A program made the translations under genes and the position numbers. Below the pieces are notes generated by a model, which was given only the letters and a program-made list of their open reading frames with translations, had not been told where the DNA came from and searched no databases. A stretch of DNA of 64,000 bases from Eledone cirrhosa (taxonomy: Eukaryota), in assembly GCA_964016885.1 (NCBI GenBank), contig OZ024749.1:9548001-9612000 (forward strand), read 5' to 3'. This document shows, one piece after another, positions 12,577-59,988 of the stretch. The first letter of the stretch is position 1, and every line of letters begins with the position of its first letter.

Positions 12577-12850
12577 AAACAGAAATAACAAAGCAAATGA
12601 CACAATGAAGAAATATATTAGTTTAATGCTTGAAATAATAGGAAAAGAGTCTGAACGTTTCAGACACTAGACTTCATCAGCATGAGAAATAAAAGCTAAA
12701 ATAGAAAGATAGCTAGTGAGAAGAAGAAAGAACAGAAAAAAAAATTTGAGAAAAACTCATGTATGTATTCAATCAGCAATTTTAGACATGTACGTATGTT
12801 CTTCTGGTTTTATAATTTCACAAATTTTTGCCAATAAAGAGAGAGTCGGT
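12577..12850 (-). mobile_element. PLE stub with hammerhead motif (about 12648-12685)
   Basis: Minus strand CTGATGA-agtctagtgtct-GAAACGTT; tail runs into (CA)/(TA) array. Confidence 0.6.
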
Positions 12851-13360: not shown

Positions 13361-13650
13361 CGTACATATATATATATACGTACAAATATATATATACATA
13401 CATATTAATATATATAAATATATATACGTACATATATATATATGTGTGTGTATATAGAAATATATATATACGTACATATATATATATATGTGTATATAGA
13501 AATATATATATACGTACATATATATATATACATATTAATATATATAAATATATATACGTACATATATATGTGTGTATATATAAATATATATATGCACATA
13601 TATATATATATGTATATATATATACGTAGATGTATATATATGTGTAATAT

Positions 13651-13862
13651 ATATTTATTAAAATAACAGATTAAAGTTTAAGCAAAGAGTCGCTGCTTTC
13701 ACCCTTAACGAGAAGATCTCGTTAAGGATGAAAGCAGCGATTCTTTGCTTAAACTTTAATCTGTTATTTTAATAAATATTTGCTCTAGGGTTCTTATATA
13801 TTTGATATATATTTATCCTTATCGAGCCCTCTTTGAATTTTAGTCTTCACATTTATTATTAT

Positions 13863-13866
<4 letters not shown>
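13651..13866 (+). mobile_element. Fold-back PLE stub, same family as 27389-28690
   Basis: Arms 13651-13713/13717-13779, tail nearly identical to 28600-28690, (TA)n on both sides. Confidence 0.85.
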
Positions 13867-13936
<70 letters not shown>

Positions 13937-26423: not shown

Positions 26424-26596
26424 TCATTTTTATTATAGCTAAATAGTGAGTCTTGTTACTCTGGAGTTTCACCTGCTTCGCCTGTGAAAAGCAGGTGAAA
26501 CTCAGAGTAACAAGACTCACTATTTAGCCATAATAAAAATGAATGTTTAAGCTCTACTTCAATATTGAGTACTCTTTTCTCTTTACCATCAACTAC
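26424..26596 (+). mobile_element. Fold-back PLE stub with hammerhead 3' half
   Basis: Arms 26424-26478/26489-26542; cctg..cagg-t-GAAA-ctcagag-TA; TA flanks. Confidence 0.75.
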
Positions 26597-27030: not shown

Positions 27031-27094
<64 letters not shown>

Positions 27095-27100
<6 letters not shown>

Positions 27101-27372
27101 AGATTTGAATGGATACAGTTTAGTTGAAAGGAATTTATTGACACGTGTTTCTATAACAGTTACATAACCTGAAAGCAGCTGTTTTCAGGTTATGTAACTG
27201 TTATAGAAACACGTGTCAATAAATTCCTTTCAACTAAACTGTATCCATTCAAATCTTTCTATTTTTCTCCGGATTACTTTTGGAACTACAACTGGAACCG
27301 TCGAGCAAACTCTACGTGAGCTGTCAATCTACTGTGTGTAATATTTATATTACAACACAACGGAAAATACTG
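27095..27372 (+). mobile_element. Fold-back PLE stub, 168-nt near-perfect palindrome plus tail
   Basis: Symmetry centre 27178/27179; GAAA-cacgtg-TC hammerhead 3' half; TA flanks. Confidence 0.8.
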
Positions 27373-27388
27373 TATATATATATATATA

Positions 27389-28687
27389 TTTATTAAAATA
27401 ACAGATTAAAGTTTAAGCAAAGAATCGCTGCTTTTTACACTGGGAGATCCTAGCTAGGGCTAGATCGTATAACGGAAATAAAAGACCATGTGACCTCTGC
27501 GCCGCTGAGGCCCTGGAAATACTCTATGCCACAGACCACATCTTAAACAAAAAATCTGAGGCAATTTCGGCTTGTAAACATAAATTGCACAAAACTTTCC
27601 TGTATTACAGCCCCACGTTATACCCTAACGGATAGTACGATCTATACGTGGATATTTTACGTCTTGATGTGGAAGCTAAGTATATGTTTTGTTTATTCCT
27701 TTACTTATTTGCATAGGTAAGTATATATTACCCGTATGTTTTGTGAAGGTATGTATACCTTCTCGTACGTATATTTGATTGCTATGGCGTATAATTTTAT
27801 ATATTCTGGTACATAGGGTTTGGCTATGTGTATACGGGAGTTTTTCGTCTGTGTGAGTATGCAGGTTCGTACGTATGGTGGGTGTGTGTATATGTGTACT
27901 TCTTGTTTTAGTTGACTTACGTCTCCGAACATTCGTGTATTTATATGTAGGTATGTGTGTGCGCTTGTTATATACGTATTTATTTATATACGTTTATATA
28001 ATTATTTATTTATTTGTATACACGCATACACACACACACATATTTATATGTGCGTGGTTTTGTATACCTATGGTAAGGTTTTGCATATGCTTGTGTATGT
28101 ACGTATTTGTTTGCGTGTATGTATTTATTTACTTTGTTCTTAACTCTGTAGTGGAGATTCATTTGGTCTCCTAGTTAGAATTTTAGTCTACGATTTCTGC
28201 TATACCATTTACGTGGTTTTGTCTTTGCCTGCTATTGTTCTCCACGCTCCACATATGACGTATTATCTTCGTTTTTTCGTTCATTGCCAGAGAACGTCTC
28301 TATGCACCACTTAAGAGAACATTAGTCTACGACCTCTTTTATACCATAAACGTGGTTCTGTCTTTGAGCGTAATAGTTTTTCACCGCTCCTATTAATGAC
28401 GTATTATTCGTTTTTTCCCCGTTCTTTGCCAGCGAACGTCACCACGAACCAAAGTATCGTCTTCCTGTCTTCCCTCGGTTGCAACGTTTTTTGAAATATC
28501 CAGTTCTGCGTTTACAGATTGACTTTGTTAGTTTCAGAAGATCCCGTTAAGGGTGAAAGCAGCGATTCTTTGCTTAAACTTTAATCTGTTATTTTAATAA
28601 ATATTTGCTCTACGGTTCTTATATATTTGATATATATTTATCCTTATCGAGCCCTCTTTGGATTTTAGTCTTCAAATTTATTATTAT

Positions 28688-28690
<3 letters not shown>
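27389..28690 (+). mobile_element. 5'-truncated PLE (Nematis-like): inverted arm, GIY-YIG C-terminus, 3' UTR, tail
   Basis: 27435-27635 translates LHWEILARARSY..CDLCAAEALEIL..LNKKSE..CKH..*; arm 27389-27434 inverts 28556-28601. Confidence 0.8.
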
Positions 28691-28739
<49 letters not shown>

Positions 28740-28850: not shown

Positions 28851-28961
28851 GTATTCTGATGTGTTGATCAGAGATAAATAATGTAAAGAAGATGAAGTGA
28901 TGCAACTTCAAGCGATTAGCGACCTCTAGACTCACCTGATCAATGAAACAATTGTCAATAC
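28851..28961 (+). ncRNA. Type I hammerhead with long stem II loop (core variant CUGAUGU)
   Basis: gtatt-CTGATGT-gttgatcag...ctgatcaat-GAAA-caattg-TC-aatac; all three stems pair; lies in a TA-flanked insert 28738-29015. Confidence 0.75.
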
Positions 28962-29011: not shown

Positions 29012-29057
<46 letters not shown>

Positions 29058-29131
29058 CGATATATATGTATATGGCAACTCAATAATACTGTCCATTTAT
29101 TAATATGTATGTATGTGTGTGTGTGTGTATA

Positions 29132-29175
<44 letters not shown>

Positions 29176-29178
<3 letters not shown>

Positions 29179-29431
29179 TATAAGAATAAAGGAACAAGGA
29201 TTCAGTGATCAAGGATTCTATGTGATCTCTTCTCTGATTTTATGATAAAATCAGAGAAGAGATCACATAGAAAATACATATCTGATGATCTTTCGATTGC
29301 GGCGTCAGGTTCAATCTATAATAGGTCTTTCCTCGAGCTGATCGATAGTGAAACATATGTAATATGTTATTAGATATGTTATGATGCAACACTGAATCCT
29401 TGTTCCTTTATTCTTATAGTATTATACTCTG
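29176..29431 (+). mobile_element. Double fold-back PLE stub
   Basis: Outer arms 29176-29207/29390-29421, inner arms 29216-29243/29245-29272. Confidence 0.8.
29276..29367 (+). ncRNA. Intact-looking type I hammerhead ribozyme
   Basis: acatat-CTGATGA-(tcgat..atcga stem II)-GAAA-catatg-TA-atatgt; predicted cut after 29361. Confidence 0.85.
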
Positions 29432-30059
29432 TATATATGTATATATGTATTAATAACTAGGAAAAGCGGACATAAAATGATGATGATGATGAATTGAATA
29501 TATTATTGAGTTGCTATTTAATAAATATAGGATATAAAAACTCGATGAATAAAACTTGGTCATTACCTATATACAAACAATGCCAGTAATTATATTATCC
29601 TGTTATTGATATCAGAAATATAGTTTGTGAGTTTGGATCAATTTATATGTCACGGGGGAAGGGAGATAGTGAAGTTTTACGACAGTCCCTTCATCTGAGA
29701 GAGAAAAACATTATTGTAAATACAATTTTGTTATCTCTCAGATGATGTATCATTAAAGAAATGTCAGAACCCCCTTGTCTCTGTCATATCCAACCTTATT
29801 TAAAGATACAAATTCCCTTATATCATCCCCTTGATATCTAAACATATCTAAATCCACAAAAAACCCACTTCTCTCTATGATATCCAACTTTGTCTATGAT
29901 ATCTAACACTTAAACTCCCCTATATCATTCTTTTTGTGATATCCTACCTTATCTAAACTTATAAACTGCCCTATAATATTCTCTTTTATGAAAATTAAAC
30001 CTATCTAAACCCACAAACTTCCAACTACATAATAAAATATCCTCCTCCTCGACACCTAC

Positions 30060-32265: not shown

Positions 32266-32571
32266 GTTTAAACCATCTCAATGATTCCGTAATACGTATT
32301 TCAGTGGTTTAATTTATCTTTGTGTTGTGTGTTTTTTTTATTTATCCCCCCCCCCCCCCATACAAACCAATAAAGCCACTAAAATACAAGGAATTACTGA
32401 GAAGTTAAAAGACAAGACAGAGATAACATAATTCAAGGGGAGAGAAGATTATGATTGATGTTGCTTTTGAATTTTTGCAAATTGTAGGGGGCAGGAAAAT
32501 AAAACGCCAAAAGATAATTCCATAGGCGGGCTGTGTGAAGAAAAACACTATCAGAATAGAATTTGCAAATA

Positions 32572-33866
32572 CAGGGTGTGGACGATATTTGTTCGCAATT
32601 TTCAACTGCTAATTTTATGCAAATTCTTTTTACTTCCGTTGTCACTCTTGTCTTCATAAAAACAGTGACTATATTTCCATTATTTATTTTCAGAATAATT
32701 GATTATGAATAATTTTGAACCTCCAAATTTGTGGAAGAGACACGGAGTTCTTCTTGGAATCCGCAGCTGGAGGACAAATAAGAAAATTTCAGACTTTCTC
32801 AGCGTCAGCAGGAGAATGGTGGAAAAGGTCAGAAAGGAATTGGAAGATTCAGGATTTGACTATGAAGCAACATCAGAGGGGAAAACACATGATCGACGAT
32901 CTGATGCCTTCAGAACGCCCGAGTTCGTTACTGAAGTTCAGGATATCATCCACAATGAACCTAGCAAGTCAATGCGTGCCATTCCAAGGGAGAAAAACGT
33001 GGATGAAAAGCTCATTAGGCTGGTGGTACATGAAGACATTCGCTACGTTTCATACAAGATGAGGAAAGGACAATTTCTGTCAAAGGCGATGCAAGAAAAG
33101 CGACTGAAGCACGAAAAGAAGCTGATCAACAAGTTGGAACACCCACTGGAGCCAGACATGCTGTGGTTTTTCTCCGACGAGAAAAACTTCTGCCAAGACC
33201 AGAAGATAAACTCCCAGAACAACAGGTGGCTCGCTGTCTCATCCAAAGATGTGCCCAGAGTCATGCAGACAAAGTTTCCAGCGACAACATTGGTCTTAGG
33301 TGTCGTCAGCAGTCAAGGTGATGTCATGCCACCTCACTTCTTCCCTGAGAGCCTCAAGCTGAACACTGATGGCTACATCCACGTTCTAAGTGAGGTAGTA
33401 AAGCCCTGGATCAACCAGGTAACTGTAGGTAGGCCGTACATGTGGCAGCAAGACTCAGCGCCCTGCCATACCAGCCGAAAGACCCAAGCCTGGCTGTCAG
33501 AGAACTTCGTCGACCACACTTCACCTGACATCTGGCTCCCAGCTCGCCTGACTGCAACCCCCTCAACTTCTTTGTGTGGGGCACAGTGGAACGAGACGCC
33601 AACAGATCTAGCTGCAATACGAAAGTCGATCTGAAGGCCAGGATCACAAGTGCCTTTAGGGGCCTAAGTCAGGGGACAGTGACGAAGGCCTGTAGCCGGT
33701 TCTGAGGCCGTCATCAAAGCCAATAGCGGGTTTATTGAGTGAGATCAAAAGAACAAGTCATGAAGACAAACTGACCCAAGTTTGATAAATAAATCTTAAA
33801 AAATAAAACTACTGTGTTATTTTTTCCTAGACAGTAATCTTGCGAACAAATATCGTCCGCACCCTG
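32572..33866 (+). mobile_element. Full-length Tc1/mariner DD37D (maT) transposon
   Basis: 27-bp TIR cagggtg(t/c)ggacgatatttgttcgcaa, TA on both sides. Confidence 0.92.
32699..33741 (+). pseudogene. DD37D transposase with a frameshift near 33540 and third catalytic D read as N
   Basis: FSDEK, WQQDSAPCH, then shifted SSPDCNPLNFFVW; 37 residues between the 2nd and 3rd catalytic positions. Confidence 0.85.
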
Positions 33867-36904: not shown

Positions 36905-37307
36905 ACTCGACAGGTTTTCTGGAGTATAATATTCAATGATATTAAATAAATGGAAACTATATTTATAAAACCATATTTATACTATTATATATATTTCAAG
37001 GGTACCAAAATTTTATCATCAGATAAAATACAAAGTTTGTTTTATAAATATTGATATATCCAGGAAAGAATAACTTAACGGTTCAAGTTTTTCCTGGAGA
37101 GTCTGATGTATTTTATCTGATGAGGGCGTACCAAAGTTTTGGTACACTTGAAATATATATAATAGAATAAATATGGTTTTAGAAATATATTTTCCATTTA
37201 TTTAATATCATTGAATATTATACTCCAGAAAACCTGTCGAGTGCTTTTAATCAGTTATAAACATTTATATTTGTTGAATTACCAACAAATTGAATATAAC
37301 TTTTGCT
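36905..37307 (+). mobile_element. Fold-back PLE stub with intact-looking hammerhead
   Basis: Arms 36905-37031/37108-37242, tail to 37307, TA flanks. Confidence 0.85.
37109..37169 (+). ncRNA. Intact-looking type I hammerhead ribozyme
   Basis: tattttat-CTGATGA-gggcgtaccaaa.g.ttttggtacactt-GAAA-tatata-TA-atagaata. Confidence 0.85.
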
Positions 37308-39250: not shown

Positions 39251-39656
39251 AGACGTTTATCAACAGTTAAAGCAGTCTGTTTTTCTTTCCTCCCCAAAAT
39301 ACATAAATACAAATAAGCACACACCACCTGGTTCTCCTTGGGGTATGAGTTAATTTCCAACTATAGACAGTAGCACCGAATGTTGTTTTAAGTCAATTAG
39401 CAATTAGTGAATAATGAAGCTACTACCAATACGATGTAGAGATGAGACAGTGTTAGTGAGTACAGAAACTGTTGGTGTACTCTTGCTTATAATACAGCAC
39501 AGCTTCCGACAAATTAATATTGTCATCATATTTTGTCTTTTGATTTAAATGATGTTTTTTTTCTCATTTCTATATGAAATTTAAGCAACACCTGATATCA
39601 AAAGTGCATGTATGCATACCTCTCTCTCTATATATATATATATATAGTAATAATAA

Positions 39657-39749
39657 TAGTAATAATAATAAATTTGAAGACTAAAATCCAAAGAGAGCTC
39701 GATAAGGATAAATATATATCAAATATATAAGAACCCTAGAGCAAATATT
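39657..39749 (-). mobile_element. Isolated tail of the 13651/27389 PLE family
   Basis: Reverse complement of 28600-28690; TA flanks. Confidence 0.8.
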
Positions 39750-39889
39750 AATATATATATATATAACAATGGTAGTGGGGAAAATGAACATCAAACGATG
39801 GTGATGATTGTATATATATATATATATATATATGTATGTCTATATCTCTCTATATATATATGTGTGTGTATTTGCGTATATATATATAT

Positions 39890-40164
39890 TAGAAAGTGAG
39901 GTTTTTTTTACAAAATGAAAAATAACCGAGGTGTCCTACACAAGTGAAAGGAAAAAGAAAAAAAAGATGAAATCGAAAATGCAACTGGAGTCTTATTTTT
40001 AAAAATATATATATATATTTAATTGGTTCCTTTACCCTCCATCTCAACTCTACTTTTGAAAAGCAGAAGAACTGCGAAACCGGTAAAGGAACCAAATAAA
40101 TATATACATTTTTTTTTTAAAATAAGACTCCAGTTGCATTTTCGATTTCACCTTTTTTTCTATC
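39890..40164 (-). mobile_element. Fold-back PLE stub; degenerate hammerhead on + at about 40052-40090
   Basis: Arms about 39958-40036/40082-40160; TTGAAAA-gcag(aagaa)ctgc-GAAA-ccgg-TA. Confidence 0.7.
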
Positions 40165-40888
40165 TATATATATATAGGTTAACACAAATCAATATATTTG
40201 ATAAACACAAATATCCTCATATTTATGTTTATATTGTAAATGACCAAGTTAGCTAGATAGAAATATACTAATAATAATATTACAGTTTGCCTATAAGATA
40301 ATACATCATAAATCAACAAAAACAAATTGTATTGGCAATGGCCGTAGTGCTTGGACAAATTTAAATTTCAAAATCAAACCTGTTCCGTAGACAGGTTTAA
40401 ACCTTAAAATCCAAATATGTTTCGAATAATGAAAAAGTGGAAGAAAATACCGCATTTTGATCTCCTCAGCAAGCACTATAAAAATTGGTATGTTCCACTT
40501 CAAAATATTTAGGAAGACTGTTTAGCGCACGAGGTAACCTCATGCGGTTATCCAGTGTCTAGCTAGCCTCATACTCGTGCTGCTAGAAATAACAGCCGTT
40601 TGTATGGGGCTAAAATCAGCTCAACGAAGGAGCAGTGAAAAATCAATAATAATGAGTTCAAATCTCAGGCGATCATTTACAATGAAATAGCTCGAAGAAA
40701 GATTATTTCTGAGCCGTGTAATATAGGTTAACACAAATCATATGTAATATATGTAATATATATGTAATATATGTTATATATATATATATATATATTATAT
40801 ATATTACATTCAAAGTTATGGATGTCATGCTTGAGATAATCTCGAACATATATATTTGTGTGTGTGTATATTTTGTATATATGGTACA

Positions 40889-41109
40889 TTTACAAATGAA
40901 CATTTGAAAGCCATTAGCTATGAATTTTGGAAGTTAATGATGTAGAGCCATCAAGCAGATTCCAGCAGAAGAAGGGACAGGTAATTATCAATGATTGTCG
41001 TTTGTTTTATGGTTCTATGTCATCACCTTCCAAAATTCATAGCTAATGGCTTTCAAATGTTTATTCGTAAACATACTGTATATCGCTAGATATACAAAAT
41101 ACACATACT
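40889..41109 (+). mobile_element. Diverged fold-back stub, no recognisable hammerhead
   Basis: Arms about 40889-40951/41009-41071, short tail, TA-rich flanks. Confidence 0.6.
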
Positions 41110-46538: not shown

Positions 46539-49061
46539 TTAAAACAGATTGTTTTATCATAGAACCAAGGTGGTCTCGGGCAGGCTGGTTAATACAAATT
46601 TATTATAAAGTCGCCCTAATAAAAGAAAGGGGTAAACCTGGGTGTGTCAATTTCAGTTTTAATTGATGTTTCATCAGATTTAGTGTAACTAAGGTCAGAC
46701 ACTGTTGTCAATTTATAAACAGTTTATAGAAATCTACAGTTTCTCAGATAGACATGTAGGACCTTGACAACACAACTATGTATATTATCATCAAGCAGTG
46801 GCATGCAGAGAGGGGTGACAACATGTTTATTTCATGTTTCACAAAAGTGTGTAACAACCCCGGACAACCAGTAACAGCCCCCCCCCCCCCCCCCGGACAA
46901 CCATATCGAGGCAGGTCATAGGGCATCCAGCCAAAGAGTCATGCAGGATTTTCCATTCAATATGGCTACTGAGTACAGCAGCCACATAGATTTCTCAAGT
47001 GCCCATCTAAAACCTGCACCCAGTTTTCCACCCAAATCAAAAAGGCTGAGAAATTTATTAATATGAAATTCAATCCATATACAGCCACATACATATCCAA
47101 ATGTATGTGGCTGTTTTTATATTAATTTGAAGTGTTTATTTCATGTTTCACCTGATTTTACATATTTAAAATGTCTTCCTTGTTCACTTTTCTCAGTACT
47201 AGGCCCTATAGTTGAGTTTTAGGAGCATACAATCAACAAGTTGGCCTCTACCCACCACTACCATCAAGTAGATTAATTATTTCTCCAATGTGACCAAACC
47301 TCTTAATTCTTACAGACTCAATCATCCTAATTCTATTAATTATGGATACAATTAACAAATATTTCATACTGTCATAAACAGTGGGATAACTGTACAATTA
47401 AACATTTTGTTCATTCGCAAATTAGATTGGATTGAATTGGTATAACTGACATGGAACTGTTCATACTATAACACATTTTTCATACATTGACATCCAGCAT
47501 GAAATAACTATGGCATTCTTATTATCATTATCATCATTGTCGTCATTTTTATACCAACTTTTTCGTGCTGCCATTTTGAGGTACTGCTTTACATCTAGAT
47601 TCCCTGCTTGTTGCCAAACCCTTTTAGTTACCTCTTGTGATTTACAGAGATATGGTGTACCAATTCTAAATCCCGAAATACACAAACACATGCATGGACA
47701 CACATACATTCACACTCATACACACATATATATATATGTGTCTGTGTGAGTGTGTGTGTGTGTGTGTGCATGTGTGTGTATATAAATATATATATGTGTG
47801 CATGTATGTATATAAATAAAAATATATGTGTGTGCGTGTGTGTATATATATAAATATATATATATATGTGCACGTGTGTGTGTGTATATATAAATAAATA
47901 TATATATATTTACATGTGAGTGAGTGTGTGTGTGTGTATGTGTATATATAAATAAATATATATATATATTTACATGTGAGTGTGTGTGTGTGCCTTGATT
48001 GACTGCAAGGAATCTCATATCCTACTTTTGTCAGCAAATATTTCAGAGAAATAACACTGGAAACTCCATAGAAAAAATTCTGTTTTACAAACAATTGATA
48101 ATGTCATATTCTCCATGAAAAGATACAATAAAAGAAATAAAATCCACTGATATGCTTTGTATTGCAATCATTCCTCATCAGTAATAACAGTTGTATTGAT
48201 GTTTTAATTGTCTTCTCATGGCATTAATCAAAAAGAAGACCTTAATAAACACAGCAAAGAGTTAATCACAATCAATATCTAATAAAATTAAATCCCGGAA
48301 ACAAATCCCATGCCGTTGTCATCTTCATTTGACACTAATGATTTGTAACACCCAAACACATGGGAATCATTCTCCATTGTACTGTGAAGCAGCCTCTAAT
48401 CTATAAAATTAAAGTTTCTCTAGAAAACATCTTCAGCTGCTTTCCTTCGTTGAAAGAAATGACATTTTTCTTTAGACCTAGCATTCAGTTCTGTTTATTG
48501 TCTTTGAGTCCAAACACAATAAAAGGGGAGGAAGAATGAAAAAAATCACCTCTTTATTATATTATATTATATTAAATTATATTATATTATATTATATTTA
48601 TTCTATATTGTGTTATTAGTTTATTCATGTTAACTGTTTGCAGATTATTTATTATATTTTGTATAAAGATTTTATTTTATTTTTGCAATATTTGAAATAA
48701 AAGTTTCAAACTGCTGAAAATATTTCATATTAAAAATGTTATTAAATTGTGTAAATGTCCATGAAATATTGTGTATATGTAAATACACGATATTGTTTAA
48801 AGTGATTGGTTTGTTTCAAATATAAACTATTGTTTAATGAAAATAGTTTCAACTACATGGGTATATGTTTTATCATTAAGCTATATCTTTTAGGTAGAAA
48901 ATGACCTCAGCAGGTATTACTTCTGATCCATCTCCCTTCCTTTGTTGTCTATCATCCTTGAATAATTTCTTTTCTATTTGACCCATTTATCACCAGCTGT
49001 ATAGCACCATTAATGGGCATTTTCCAATGTGACAGACTTTTACAACACAAGAGTACTAACA

Positions 49062-51938: not shown

Positions 51939-52028
51939 TTTGGAAGGTCACATCCAGCAGCAAAGAGATGGCATCAAAAACACATTAAAGATATTTGAGG
52001 AACAAAAAACCAACCATTTAAATAACAT
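51939..52028 (+). CDS. Putative host gene exon 3 (90 nt, phase 2/2): LEGHIQQQRDGIKNTLKIFEEQKTNHLNN, coiled-coil-like
   Basis: ttattttcAG acceptor, GTAAGT donor; only the phase-2 frame is open. Confidence 0.65.
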
Positions 52029-54500: not shown

Positions 54501-55919
54501 GTATATATAGCGGCGATGAATTAGTTTTGCGAGGTTTTTTATATGAAATCGTGTGTCGAAACAAATATTGTTACACTTGGGGAGGGTCATATTTGTGTAA
54601 CATTGCCAGAATTAATAACAGACCACACTCACTGTTTGGTTGGTTTTCGCTTCTCGCTTCTGTGTCTTTTATATCGGTAATCTAACTTACTCGGTCCTCA
54701 ATGTTGCCATTGACTGACCGACGCTCAAAAATAATACAGACACAATATAGACACAAACACATATATATAGTTTATCATAAATCTTTCGTTGCACATCTGC
54801 AACATCGTCAGAGGTGTTATATTTTCCTCCTGTTGTATTGTATGTCTACGCCATTTTTATTCAGTCTGTCTATATATTTATTTATTTATTTGCTTGTTTG
54901 TTTATTTTATTTTGTCTTCTTTGCGCATGCGTTTGCGTGTGTGTATAGTGTTTTGTTTGCTGTGTGATGGGTGACTAGTGTGTGTTTATGTGCTTGTTGT
55001 TATTGTGTATGTATTTATTTATTTATTTATTTTATTTTACTTATTTATACTTCTATAAGGTCAGTGTTGTTTGTTTGGGTGTTGTTGTTATTCCATTCAT
55101 TCTTTTAGCCTTGGTCTTCTAATTTCTATTTCACTGGCCTCTCTGATTTGCCTATCTGCTGGGTCATTTCTATGTTTAGATATTGTTCTAATTTCTATGT
55201 TGTGTATGTTACCGTCATGTTGTTGTCTAGCATGTTCGTATAGTACTGACCCGTTTTTTCGTCCTTTTAGTTCCCCCCAGTGTTGGTCTATCCTTTCACC
55301 TATGCTACGAGCTGTCTCACCTATGTATCTTGTTCTCATGTTTCTGCAAGTACCCTCTGTACATCTTATGCTATAGACTACATTTCTAGTTTTACAGTTT
55401 ATCCGGGGGTTCACCTTACATATGATACATTTCCTATTGGTACAGTGGGTTTTCTTGAAAGGGTAGGTTTTGCTGATCAGGGATTTTATGGTGGTTCCTG
55501 GCTTTTCTACCACCTTTATTTTTAAGTGGGTCTTTCTCAGGGCCTTTCTACACTGGTTAGCTAATTTCCCTCCAGGGGTGGCGTCCACAAACATGACACT
55601 CTGGTATCTCTGGTTGTCGTACCATGAGGTGGCTTTCCCTATCTTATGCCTAGCCCTATCTAAGCTATTCCATGATTTGCTCCTGTATAATGGGCAAATT
55701 CCTTTCATGTCCAGTTCTATGAGGGTCTTATACTTTTCCATGGCTCCTTCGTATACTCTGACTCCGTCTCTTTGGTTGTAGCCAGAGAACTGCATGCGGT
55801 TGATGAAGTTTTACATCATTCATACGGATATTGTCGATGTTATCTGGGTATTTTTGAGAATATTCGATTTTCCTTTCTTGTAGTTTTTTCTTATTCATCC
55901 ATTCTAATTTCTTATTGAA

Positions 55920-58012
55920 ATGCCTATTGCATTCGTTTCGAGCGTATTTCGTTTCACGTCGGATGATGCTCATGAAATTGCACAACAAACACACGATGGG
56001 AGAGAGAAAATCCTCAACGCTCACACGATGTTGTGGACTGACATCCTAAAGCCAAGCAGACGCACTGCCAACAACTTCCAGGCGTCTAACAATGGCATAC
56101 CACCCTTGTATGGGCTCCGCAAAGACCACAAGACAGTCGACGACCCGACAACAGGACCACCAACAAGACCTGTATGTGGAGCTAATATAGCTAGCAACTA
56201 CAGGATCTCCTACTTCCTCTCAATGGTTATACGCCCCATAATCAAGATGTCCCCAGATGTATGTGACAGTACAGAGGACCTCCTCAGCAGAATCAGTGAG
56301 TGCAACAAAAACAGGAGCCTATCCAACTGCATAATAGGCAGCATGGATGTGGTGTCACTGTACCCATCCATTAACATTGATTTTGCTGTGAAAAGATGTG
56401 TGGAGATGATCATTGAGAGTAAGGTGGAGTTCTGCGACGTCGACACAGACGAACTGGGCCTCCTACTTAGACTTACCTACGACACTGACTACCTAGACAG
56501 CCATGACCTTAGATGTTTCTGCCCTAGTAGACCTATAAGAGGTAGACCCCCCACCATAACCTCAATGGCAAAAAAGACTCCCATGGGAAGGTGGATTGGG
56601 TGGACCAAAGCTATACGGACCCCCCAAAACAATGATCAGGTAAGAAAAATGGTCGCACATGCAATAGGGGCTAGTATCAAAACTACCCTAAAGGGCCACA
56701 TATTTAAGTTCAACGAGAAGATCTACACCCAAAATGAGGGAGCAGCCATCGGCGTCAGCATAGCTGGTGATGTTGCCAACCTTTTCATGGTATGGTGGGA
56801 AAGGAGACTTAAAGATCTCCTTAATGAGAGCTCCATAGACCTCATCATGTACTCTCGTTACATAGACGATATCAATATAGTTATAAGAACATCCCCACTA
56901 GAGAGCACTAACAAGTTTGATTTAGAACATAGCATGATGGAAAGTATCCAGCAGATAGCTAATTCCATACACCAGAGTATAACTGTAACTATCGACTTCC
57001 CTTCCAAACACCCTAACAATAGACTACCTGTATTAGACACAGAACTCTGGATTAACAATATAGACGAGAGAGCCCAAATTCTCCACTCACACTATGCTAA
57101 ACCCATGGCCTCCAAATACCTGATACTCAAAAACTCAGCAATGTCCAGTAGTGCTAAGTTTAATATTCTGATCGCAGATTTGGTACGAGTGATGAAGAAT
57201 GTGTCCCGCATGTGCGACCCAACAGAAATGGAAAGACACATCCAACACTTCATCAACCGCATGCAGTTCTCTGGCTACAACCAAAGAGACAGAGTCAGAG
57301 TATACGAAGGAGCCATGGAAAAGTATAAGACCCTCATAGAACTGGACATGAAAGGAATTTGCCCATTATACAGGAGCAAATCATGGAATAGCTTAGATAG
57401 GGCTAGACATAAGATAGGGAAAGCCACCTCATGGTACGACAACCAGAGATACCAGAGTGTCATGTTTGTGGACGCCACCCCTGGAGGGAAATTAGCTAAC
57501 CAGTGTAGAAAGGCCCTGAGAAAGACCCACTTAAAAATAAAGGTGGTAGAAAAGCCAGGAACCACCATAAAATCCCTGATCAGCAAAACCTACCCTTTTA
57601 AGAAAACCCACTGTACCAATAAGAAATGTATCATATGTAAGGTGAACCCCAGGATAAACTGTAAAACTAGAAACGTAGTCTATAGCATAAGATGTACAGA
57701 GGGTACTTGCAGAAACATGAGAACAAGATACATAGGTGAGACAGCTCGTAGCATAGGTGAAAGGATAGACCAACACTGGGGGGAACTAAAAGGATGAAAA
57801 AACGGGTCAGTACTATACGAACAAGCTAGACAACAACATGACGGTAACATACACAACATAGAAATTAGAACAATATCTAAACATAGAAATGACCCAGCAG
57901 ATAGGCAAATCAGAGAGGCCAGTGAAATAGAAATTAGAAGACCAAGGCTAAACAGAAAGAATGAATGGAATAACAACACCCAAACAAACAACACTGACCT
58001 AAGAGAAGTATA
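55920..58012 (+). pseudogene. PLE RT + GIY-YIG endonuclease, N-truncated, premature TGA at 57795
   Basis: LYGLRKDHK, SMDVVSLYPSI, RYIDD, CIIC, NVVY..YIGET; the inverted copy has CGA (Arg) at the stop. Confidence 0.9.
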
Positions 58013-58106
58013 AATAAGTAAAATGAAATAAATAAATAAATAAATATATAGACAGACTGAATAAAAATGGCGTAGACATACAATACAACAGGAGGAAAAT
58101 ATAACA

Positions 58107-58146
58107 CCACTGACGATGTTGCAGATGTGCAACGAAAGATTTATGA
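58107..58146 (+). ncRNA. Hammerhead motif of PLE A (mirror copy on - at about 54775-54814)
   Basis: CTGACGA-t-gttgc(agatgt)gcaac-GAAA-gatt-TA; weak stem I. Confidence 0.65.
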
Positions 58147-58245
58147 TAAACTATATATATGTGTTTGTGTCTATATTGTATCTGTATTATTTTTGAGCGT
58201 CGGTCAGTCAATGGCAACATTGAGGACCGAGTAAGTTAGATTACC

Positions 58246-59988
58246 TGCCAACCCAACGCCGTCGCCTTCTACTCCAGATACGTTGATGACATCCTGATAC
58301 TTACTTCTTCCCGGGAGATGGCTAATGAAATTCACCAAATTTTCAACGATACTGACCATCACGTCGATTTCACCATCGAACACCCAGGAGAAGACGGGTC
58401 ACTCGCCCTCCTCGACTTCCGTATCAATATCTCGGAAGAAGGAGACATAAACACCACCTTCTACCGCAAAGCAGCGTGCAAGGACTTATTTGTGCATTAT
58501 AACTCAGCCCTCCCCAACAACACTAAGAGAGGCTATGTCCTAAATGAACTGACACGGATCACTAACAGATGCAGCGACCCGATGGGTGGTCTCACCCATA
58601 CCACGCAATTCCGTAATCTACTCAGATCTAATGGTTATCCCAAGCGACTGATTAACGGAATTAGAGACCCCAGACCCAATAGACAGACACCCACTAGAAA
58701 CTTAAATAAATGCAGGTGCTTCTTTAAAATCCCCCACCTGAGTGATTATACCACGAACGCCATCCGCAGGGCCATACGGACGGAGGGACTTGACATACAT
58801 TTGGCCCACACAGGACCTTCACTGCGAAGATGCCTCTCCAACAAACCCGACGAGTCAGATGGGACGTGTTCCCTCAGCAACTGCCCGATACGGGGGGCAG
58901 ATTGCCTACGCACCTATGTCGTATATAAGATTCAATGCGATAAATGTAACAAGTTTTACATAAGTAGCACCATCCGACCCCTACATGTTCGTATCAAGGA
59001 ACATATCAACACCAACGCATCTTCCTTCCGTAAACACATCCTTAAATGCGGAAACCCACAGGGTATACCCTTGGTCACAGTCCTAGTGACTGAACGCAGC
59101 ATCGGATCCTTAAGGATAAAGGAAGCACTTGTTATTAAGAACCTCAGACCCCCACTTAACAACCGGGCTGAGAGAAATGAGCTGACATGGCTAACTTAAC
59201 CATAGTGACCATTCACAGCCTACGGCCTGCTATCTTCACACACACGCACGTATATGCATACCCATACGCATACACACACACATCTATATTTATACACGCA
59301 CACATGTTTTTACAACCTACCACCTTTCACACCCTTTGATTTCCAGCTTCTACAGCCCACTATCTTTCACACACACACGCACTCACACATATACACACAC
59401 AGTTACACACACATGTATACCCATACGCTTACACACACACATCTATATTTATACACGCACACATGTTTTACAACCTACCACCTTTCACACCCTTTGATTT
59501 CCAGCTTCTACAGCCCACTATCTTTCACACACACACACTCACACATATACACACTTACACTTATACACACACAGTTACACACACATATATATTTACACAC
59601 ACATATTTTACGGCTTTCACATGCTAGCGCACCCTCTTGATTTAACCCATTTGGTCAGTAGCTTTTGCCACAGCCTATCACGCGCACGCGCATTCTTTCC
59701 CTCGTTTAAATTTTAAATAATTTTCTCCCCATAACGGCATTCCTGTCTTAACGACATCACAACTTTCTCCGCTTGGCCTGTTCCCCCCCTTTTGGAACTT
59801 TCCCCCATTGATGGGCGTGAGCCCGAAATATTGGGATTAAATCTCCACTACGGTAACCCTTCTACCTTTGTTTTGTTTTCATCTTTGTCTCTCTCAATTT
59901 TCACTTTCACCTGTTTCTCCTATCTATCATTCACTTCCTACCTCGAGATTTCCCTCTGCATTGTTGTGGCTTTCTTAACTACGTATTT
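58246..59988 (+). mobile_element. Penelope-like element B, 5'-truncated (RT C-terminus, GIY-YIG, 3' UTR)
   Basis: RYVDD at about 58276, ORF to 59199 with VVY..YISST, RIKEH; degenerate hammerhead gggc(gtga)gccc-GAAA near 59810; ends in (TA)n. Confidence 0.85.

Follow-up and report, generated by a model that had tools for sequence, protein, structure and literature searches.

The closest described counterparts of the hammerhead motif considered here are carried by retroelements. The axolotl retrozyme Rtz353, a 350-bp tandem repeat, contains the type I hammerhead HHR_Amex2, which is described in the text of that study with a U·U at the base of helix II and a two-pair helix III with a tetraloop, and which cleaved 22% of the monomer in 1 h (Cervera and de la Pena, 2020; PMC7229834), equal by our calculation to 0.004/min or ~4% cut in 10 min. 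The hammerheads of the pseudo-LTRs of Penelope-type elements (PLEs) are also described as type I, with a palindromic helix III and a long helix II, and occur as thousands of solo copies from truncated elements and as opposite-strand pairs 100-700 bp apart (Cervera and de la Pena, 2014; PMC4209133). The same source gives a minimal hammerhead (min-HHR) consensus with an extra base between positions 9 and 10.1, a G10.1-C11.1 pair and a palindromic 15.2-16.2/loop 3. PLE insertions are reported to show 5' truncation, an inverted truncated copy, a one-sided tail of 30-40 bp and (TA)n targets (Craig et al., 2021; PMC8557442), and uncut RNA was reported as the main PLE template, the ribozyme needing protein (Frangieh et al., 2024; PMC11167929). 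According to a preprint, retrozymes derive from PLE pseudo-LTRs, and eight of nine genomic retrozyme dimers did not cleave (Li et al., 2026, bioRxiv 10.64898/2026.07.22.740005).

We examined a window of 64,000 nucleotides from Eledone cirrhosa (assembly GCA_964016885.1, contig OZ024749.1, positions 9,548,001 to 9,612,000 of the forward strand), an AT-rich animal sequence full of microsatellites and of LINE and transposon remains. On its + strand a 92-mer (29276-29367) reads as a type I hammerhead, located inside a two-armed repeat copy of 255 bp (29177-29431; Table 1). Based on its many relatives, end anatomy and predicted folding, we think it probable that this hammerhead is a passenger of a many-copy repeat. 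PLE machinery likely placed the present copy in (TA)n, and the copy is predicted to be folded shut and likely inert. The significance is mainly that of a correction: the hammerheads here are scattered retroelement debris, with four more hammerhead-like motifs within 8 kb and thus five in 9 kb. Because such debris is widespread, a hammerhead in a putative intron is expected and is silent on host regulation.

Table 1. Coordinates of the hammerhead, its repeat copy and related features in the window
Feature	Position	Strand	Remarks
(TA)n/(TG)n microsatellite	29016-29176		likely insertion target
Left arm, outer part	29177-29207	-	exact reverse complement of 29390-29420, 31/31
Left-arm junction	29208-29215	-	read by eye
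Perfect fold-back hairpin	29216-29272		27-bp arms, 3-nt loop; head-to-head centre of the arms
Stem I 5' strand, ACAUAU	29276-29281	+	duplicates the first six bases of the stem III palindrome
Core C3-A9, CUGAUGA	29282-29288	+
Long stem II	29289-29349	+	61 nt, with distal hairpin
G12-A14, palindromic stem III ACAUAUGU, A17	29350-29361	+	predicted cut after 29361
Stem I 3' strand, AUAUGU	29362-29367	+
Anti-core strand	29367-29379	+	pairs 13/13 with 29276-29288 in this copy
Right arm, 3' segment	29390-29420	+	common to many copies
Short "tail"	29421-29431	+	~10 bases, right arm only
Neptune-type PLE 3' remnant	27386-28737	+	inverted 49-bp end; 3' part recurs at 13711-13918 and 39629-39752
Motif in the PLE remnant	28535-28575		CAGAAGA core, U·U at stem II base, 5-bp stem III
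Second palindromic hammerhead	28851-28961	+	~430 bases upstream; CUGAUGU core, ACAAUUGU, GUC; stem II of 9 bp, 82-nt domain; good splice-like signals on the opposite strand
Inverted hammerhead pair	36918-37240	+/-	37117 (+) and 37022 (-); AUAUAUAU palindrome; same two-armed design, ribozyme in both arms; minus copy with shortened stem II
PLE RT/endonuclease piece	54676-58245		piece at 55908-57797 (+), with inverted truncated copy
min-HHR-like motif	~58107-58150		by eye; extra base, 6-bp G-C-closed stem II, wobble palindrome; stem I only 2 bp
Second PLE-like frame	58240-59199	+	319 aa; weak RVT_1 match
Minimal hammerhead core	12654-12690	-	by eye; degenerate stem II
Long fold-back palindromes	1227-1366, 13643-13787, 26437-26545, 27083-27274, 39960-40160, 40820-41060		three computed, the others by eye; most adjoin TA runs
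Transposase remnant	32560-33860		311-aa frame, terminal repeats; Pfam matches only weak and unrelated; presumably Tc1/mariner-like

All elements of a type I hammerhead core (CUGANGA, G12-A14, A15.1-U16.1, H17) are present in the 92-mer, and all three helices can be drawn, with helix I open-ended. GAAA starts at 29350, and the palindrome ACAUAUGU (29353-29360) would give a stem III of 2 bp with a 4-nt loop in the monomer and an 8-bp duplex in the dimer. The first-pass annotation had reported a hammerhead with a palindromic stem III and a GUA cleavage triplet cut at 29361/29362. These parts are read directly from the sequence and, together with the core and stem I, support a real motif: a strict descriptor (core, palindromic stem III of at least 8 nt and stem I of at least 5 pairs) matched twice in the 64-kb window, whereas 200 block shuffles averaged 0.005 matches and never gave 2. 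By themselves, the two core words do not significantly exceed chance: they match twice where 0.83 is expected, and 24 of 100 shuffles gave at least 2 matches. The accompanying description as canonical and intact does not hold, given the U·U at pair 10.1-11.1 of stem II (29289/29349), another mismatch at pair 4, the spacing of 61 nt from A9 to G12 and the Rfam result. No Rfam hammerhead family matched at gathering score or among 35 matches at E<=10, and the miRNA matches returned here involve only the fold-back hairpin and the TA repeats. The Rfam models were likely defeated by the long stem II, and we do not take the absent match as defining.

In design, the motif appears from its sequence to resemble the published retrozyme hammerhead HHR_Amex2, with which it shares type I topology, the U·U at the helix II base and the two-pair helix III with tetraloop, more than the min-HHR consensus. 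Neither the extra base nor the G10.1-C11.1 pair of that consensus occurs in 29276-29367 and loop III is kept, so the motif is not strictly "minimal"; the palindromic 15.2-16.2/loop 3 of the published consensus is present as ACAUAUGU. By analogy with HHR_Amex2, weak activity as a monomer and stronger activity as a dimer would be expected. The earlier assignment of the palindrome to the dimer type is in line with published work, and the 8-bp self-duplex that the palindrome can form has a predicted energy of -7.0 kcal/mol, which fits this type as well. Unlike the Rtz353 ribozyme, the one here has a 61-nt extended domain as stem II, and the locus is a truncated single unit with an inverted arm instead of a 350-bp tandem repeat. 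No second tandem unit with a hammerhead occurs in the 64-kb window, and the tandem arrangement of retrozymes is absent at this locus. The pseudo-LTR hammerheads described from PLEs share type I topology, a palindromic helix III and a long helix II, likewise occur in many copies, and have a parallel for their opposite-strand pairs at 36986-37161.

Three sequencing runs of one sample contain the stretch, and three RAD-seq runs bear the same species label. Contigs matching 29200-29432 numbered 1,456 in one run (X1) and 1,426 in another (X3), and RAD reads matching the same interval numbered 993 (X4) and 1,095 (X6), none at >=99% identity. Summed contig depth at 29352-29359 reached 110,918 (X1) and 102,095 (X3) against 8.8 in unique flank, a palindrome-to-flank ratio of ~12,000 that is not to be read as a copy number. 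The hammerhead without doubt belongs to a many-copy repeat, and is therefore not of the single-copy, conserved host intronic type. The part of the repeat at 29200-29239, in the left arm, had a relatives' depth of 0, and family sequence upstream of the repeat is visible only as loose ends of 30 bases. Judged by eye from loose ends, other copies have distal hairpins of differing sequence. A metagenome scan with the exact family pattern gave 0 matches; a looser pattern of core plus palindrome gave 58 loci, none of which (0/58) had a stem I of at least 4 pairs, and these were taken as chance (best blastn E=0.004). No paper on cephalopod hammerhead families was among those listed by a literature search, and thus the repeat family is probably undescribed, though of a described kind.

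The core and the palindrome are conserved across copies. Variation in at least 8% of reads affected 21 of 61 stem II positions and 0 of 16 positions in 29350-29365 (Fisher p=0.004), in a test that is biased by alignment seeding. This constancy beside the variable stem II would indicate that selection acts on the element, a result that alignment seeding favours. Within the first strand of the core, N7 is variable and one RAD group has a changed G8. At 29293/29345, where this copy has U-A, the RAD reads show C and G in nearly equal proportions (in X4, 41% and 40%); these unphased shares suggest a compensatory pair. Since 29289 is G in 4-8% of contig depth and in ~95% of RAD reads, U·U and G·U are both family forms. 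The copy at 29177-29431 differs from most relatives at eight sites. For example, 29346 (pair 4 of stem II) is U here and C in 73-74% of contig depth, and 29373 is G here and A in 99% of contig depth and ~80% of RAD reads.

The anatomy of the copy points to how it may have arrived. On the minus strand, the left arm first repeats 29246-29272 without a difference and then passes by microhomology jumps to 29390-29420; by eye, the jumps are 29272 to 29397, 29402 to 29262 and 29266 to 29393, with microhomologies of 3, 1 and 3 bases. The segment 29273-29389, including the whole ribozyme, is missing from this arm. The doubly nested inverted repeats described earlier were not found as such: the motif is flanked on both sides only by the repeat of 31 bp (29177-29207/29390-29420), the hairpin of 27 bp at 29216-29272 adjoins the ribozyme and the 13-bp repeat pairs with the hammerhead core itself. 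The arms match at 58 of 58 positions, which makes the insertion young, with divergence below 5% as an upper bound. The left arm ends at the point where other copies run into (TA)n; loose ends behind 29422 pass into (TA)n in 19 (X1) and 14 (X3) contigs, and 18 contigs continue past 29431. Six contig joints connect 29276-29279 to an opposite-strand copy of 29318-29401.

Several of these features are those of PLE insertions as published, namely an inverted 5'-truncated copy with flanking inverted repeats and a (TA)n or AT-rich target (PMC8557442). In contrast to the published cases, the putative one-sided tail here has ~10 bases instead of 30-40 bp (other copies extend further), no RT or GIY-YIG reading frame lies inside 29177-29431, and the inverted arm is without ribozyme. 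No reading frame is linked to the repeat family, and thus its PLE origin rests on end anatomy and context. We propose that a PLE-like reverse transcriptase/endonuclease inserted the copy into (TA)n. The parent element was probably, if by no means surely, a non-coding retrozyme; a PLE pseudo-LTR is a tentative second candidate. In the parent, ribozymes would act chiefly in pairs joined by the 8-bp palindrome, processing multimeric element RNA. Because the right arm continues across the cut site without a break, its template would have been uncut or re-ligated RNA, consistent with the uncut-RNA template of Frangieh et al. (2024; PMC11167929). The left arm may have lost the ribozyme by microhomology jumps, either during reverse transcription or in later palindrome repair. 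The copy would be suited to testing whether the PLE reverse transcriptase jumps across folded ribozymes. In so young an insertion, what looks "worn" may reflect a variant template rather than decay.

Predicted folding suggests that the hammerhead at 29276-29367 adopts an inactive shape. In the isolated 92-mer (folding z-score -0.28), the stem I 5' strand pairs with the palindrome at a share of 0.50 and with its true partner at 0.40, because the palindrome holds the same AUAUGU as the stem I 3' strand. Thus, the perfect 6-bp stem I of the first-pass annotation stands as six Watson-Crick pairs (29276-29281/29362-29367) and does not stand as a fold, the lowest-energy 92-mer pairing its 5' strand with the palindrome. 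Stem II has a predicted share of 0.93-1.0 while helix I is out-competed. G29373 completes a 13-bp helix in which 29367-29379 pairs with the core and the stem I strand before it. This anti-core helix has a share of 0.98-1.0 in most contexts and of 0.04 in the right-arm-only fold; with G it reaches 0.998 in 29270-29385, where A gives 0.38, and 0.975 in the whole unit, where A gives 0.017. For the active monomer, the predicted share drops from 2e-4 for the 92-mer to 1.6e-10 when 18 downstream bases are included and is 7e-10 for the whole unit, and the active fold is predicted to be out-competed once ~18 more bases are transcribed. In the right-arm-only fold (29246-29421) the letter at 29373 barely matters (1.5e-9 vs 3.0e-9), the active fold still being disfavoured. 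Copies with the usual A at 29373 are likewise predicted to adopt the active fold only rarely (1.6e-6), and folding therefore gives no sharp distinction between this copy and working ones; the nearest-neighbour energies used take no account of stabilisation by tertiary contacts or Mg2+ and count against any hammerhead junction. If transcribed at all, a lone copy whose anti-core helix is complete would seldom cut.

Some incidental cutting might nevertheless occur if a read-through transcript were to self-cut in small share or to pair in trans, with no selected role. HHR_Amex2, which has the U·U and the 2-bp stem III with tetraloop as well, cuts as a monomer at the published rate of 22% in 1 h (PMC7229834), the palindrome is common to many copies, and for bare 92-mers the active dimer lies 4.6 kcal/mol below two monomers (-4.6). 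However, the balance becomes +13.6 kcal/mol with the downstream strand, the active dimer is disfavoured by 13.6-23.8 kcal/mol with downstream bases in general, and even for 92-mers free co-folding (-45.4 kcal/mol) beats the active dimer (-42.0 kcal/mol). We consider such leakage unlikely. Partners in cis were sought among the neighbouring motifs. A heterodimer with the hammerhead at 28856 was rejected for its weak duplex (-1.2 kcal/mol) and non-matching stem I strands, which do not cross-pair, and the motif at 28535 was set aside for its non-palindromic five-pair stem III. Neither neighbouring same-strand hammerhead is thus predicted to offer a matching dimer partner.

We regard as improbable a further reading, in which the family has a built-in off switch and this copy preserves in DNA an event of RNA editing that threw the switch. 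Three identical AUAUGU partners are available to the stem I 5' strand (in the palindrome, in the true strand and downstream); the monomer would mispair and only dimerisation would free the active fold. Opposite core C3, the downstream decoy helix has an A·C mismatch in the family form, and this copy has G. An A·C mismatch is of the kind that ADAR favours. Editing by ADAR would then lock the ribozyme shut, the RNA would be spared from cleavage and reverse-transcribed, and the left arm would record the enzyme jumping across the folded ribozyme. At four sites (29299, 29301, 29325 and 29373) the RNA strand of this copy has G where the family most often has A. A-to-G makes up four of the eight minority-letter sites and four of the seven transitions, which is not significant (p=0.07-0.09). 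The copy would also serve to test whether cleavage is restricted to dimers when a stem I strand repeats part of the palindrome.

The intronic ribozyme of CPEB3 and the intronic hammerheads of amniotes are single-copy, conserved at orthologous sites and active as monomers. The HDV-like ribozyme of CPEB3, for which timed intronic cleavage is described (PMC10919898), and the amniote intronic hammerheads (PMC6765202) share with this locus a self-cleaving motif that is possibly intronic. Such precedents, and the intact core, palindrome and GUA, speak for the view of the first-pass annotation that a host intron carries the ribozyme in sense orientation, where it could cut the pre-mRNA co-transcriptionally. 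That it does so to a degree that matters, as in CPEB3, we regard as very improbable. In contrast to the described cases, this is a young, mobile and non-conserved repeat copy with no verified host gene, and the sense orientation in a host intron was not confirmed, as no host exon around 29276-29367 could be established by splice scans, Pfam or homology. Of 274 listed frames, 221 were candidates; Pfam searches covered 150 of these and returned one weak Ty3 capsid match, without any host family. A relaxed splice scan yielded eight exon candidates on the + strand and seven on the - strand, without + enrichment. Co-transcriptional cutting is further opposed by the rate of the analogue, 0.004/min or ~4% per 10 min before the anti-core helix is considered, by the competing fold and by the missing partner in cis.

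The best exon-like piece has 90 bases (51939-52028, +) and good splice scores; a piece of 20 bases at 48894-48913 (+), also with plausible splice sites, looks in frame with it by eye, and the two encode a coiled-coil-like peptide. Together they make a + strand gene, and by sequence an intron at the hammerhead, possible. However, the 90-base candidate had no detected homologue, its only atlas leads being below 0.9, and the splice scans revealed no exon upstream of 29177 linked to it. The best-scoring candidate near the hammerhead (27611-27716, +) lies inside the PLE remnant and overlaps its reading frame, and is therefore not host evidence. In Xenopus, 42-44% of retrozyme copies are reported to overlap introns (Li et al., 2026, bioRxiv 10.64898/2026.07.22.740005), so that an intron location would be unremarkable.

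A reading of 29177-29431 as a MITE with 31-bp terminal inverted repeats, a TA target and the motif as cargo accounts for the perfect inverted ends in a TA-rich site, but is scarcely credible and largely refuted by the absence of left-arm relatives (depth 0 on 29200-29239, the shared sequence being right-hand) and by an inversion point that varies among copies (29318-29401), with the left arm also copying internal sequence and some copies extending past the "terminus".

The surroundings of the repeat, read as retroelement debris, include several PLE pieces. A GIY-YIG-type C-terminus remnant at 27432-27632 had 221 phmmer matches (best E=1e-13); it had no Pfam match and none by word search, and is placed only by phmmer. 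One 504-aa relative among these matches we take, by its motifs, to be a Neptune-type RT-GIY-YIG protein, and one of ten scanned relatives gave a sub-threshold GIY-YIG match. No similarity was found between this remnant and the PLE frame at 58240. A min-HHR pattern search of the window returned nothing, and the motifs at 58107 and 12654-12690 are readings by eye. The six further long fold-back palindromes listed in Table 1 are, to judge from their sequence, likely short head-to-head insertions of the same kind.
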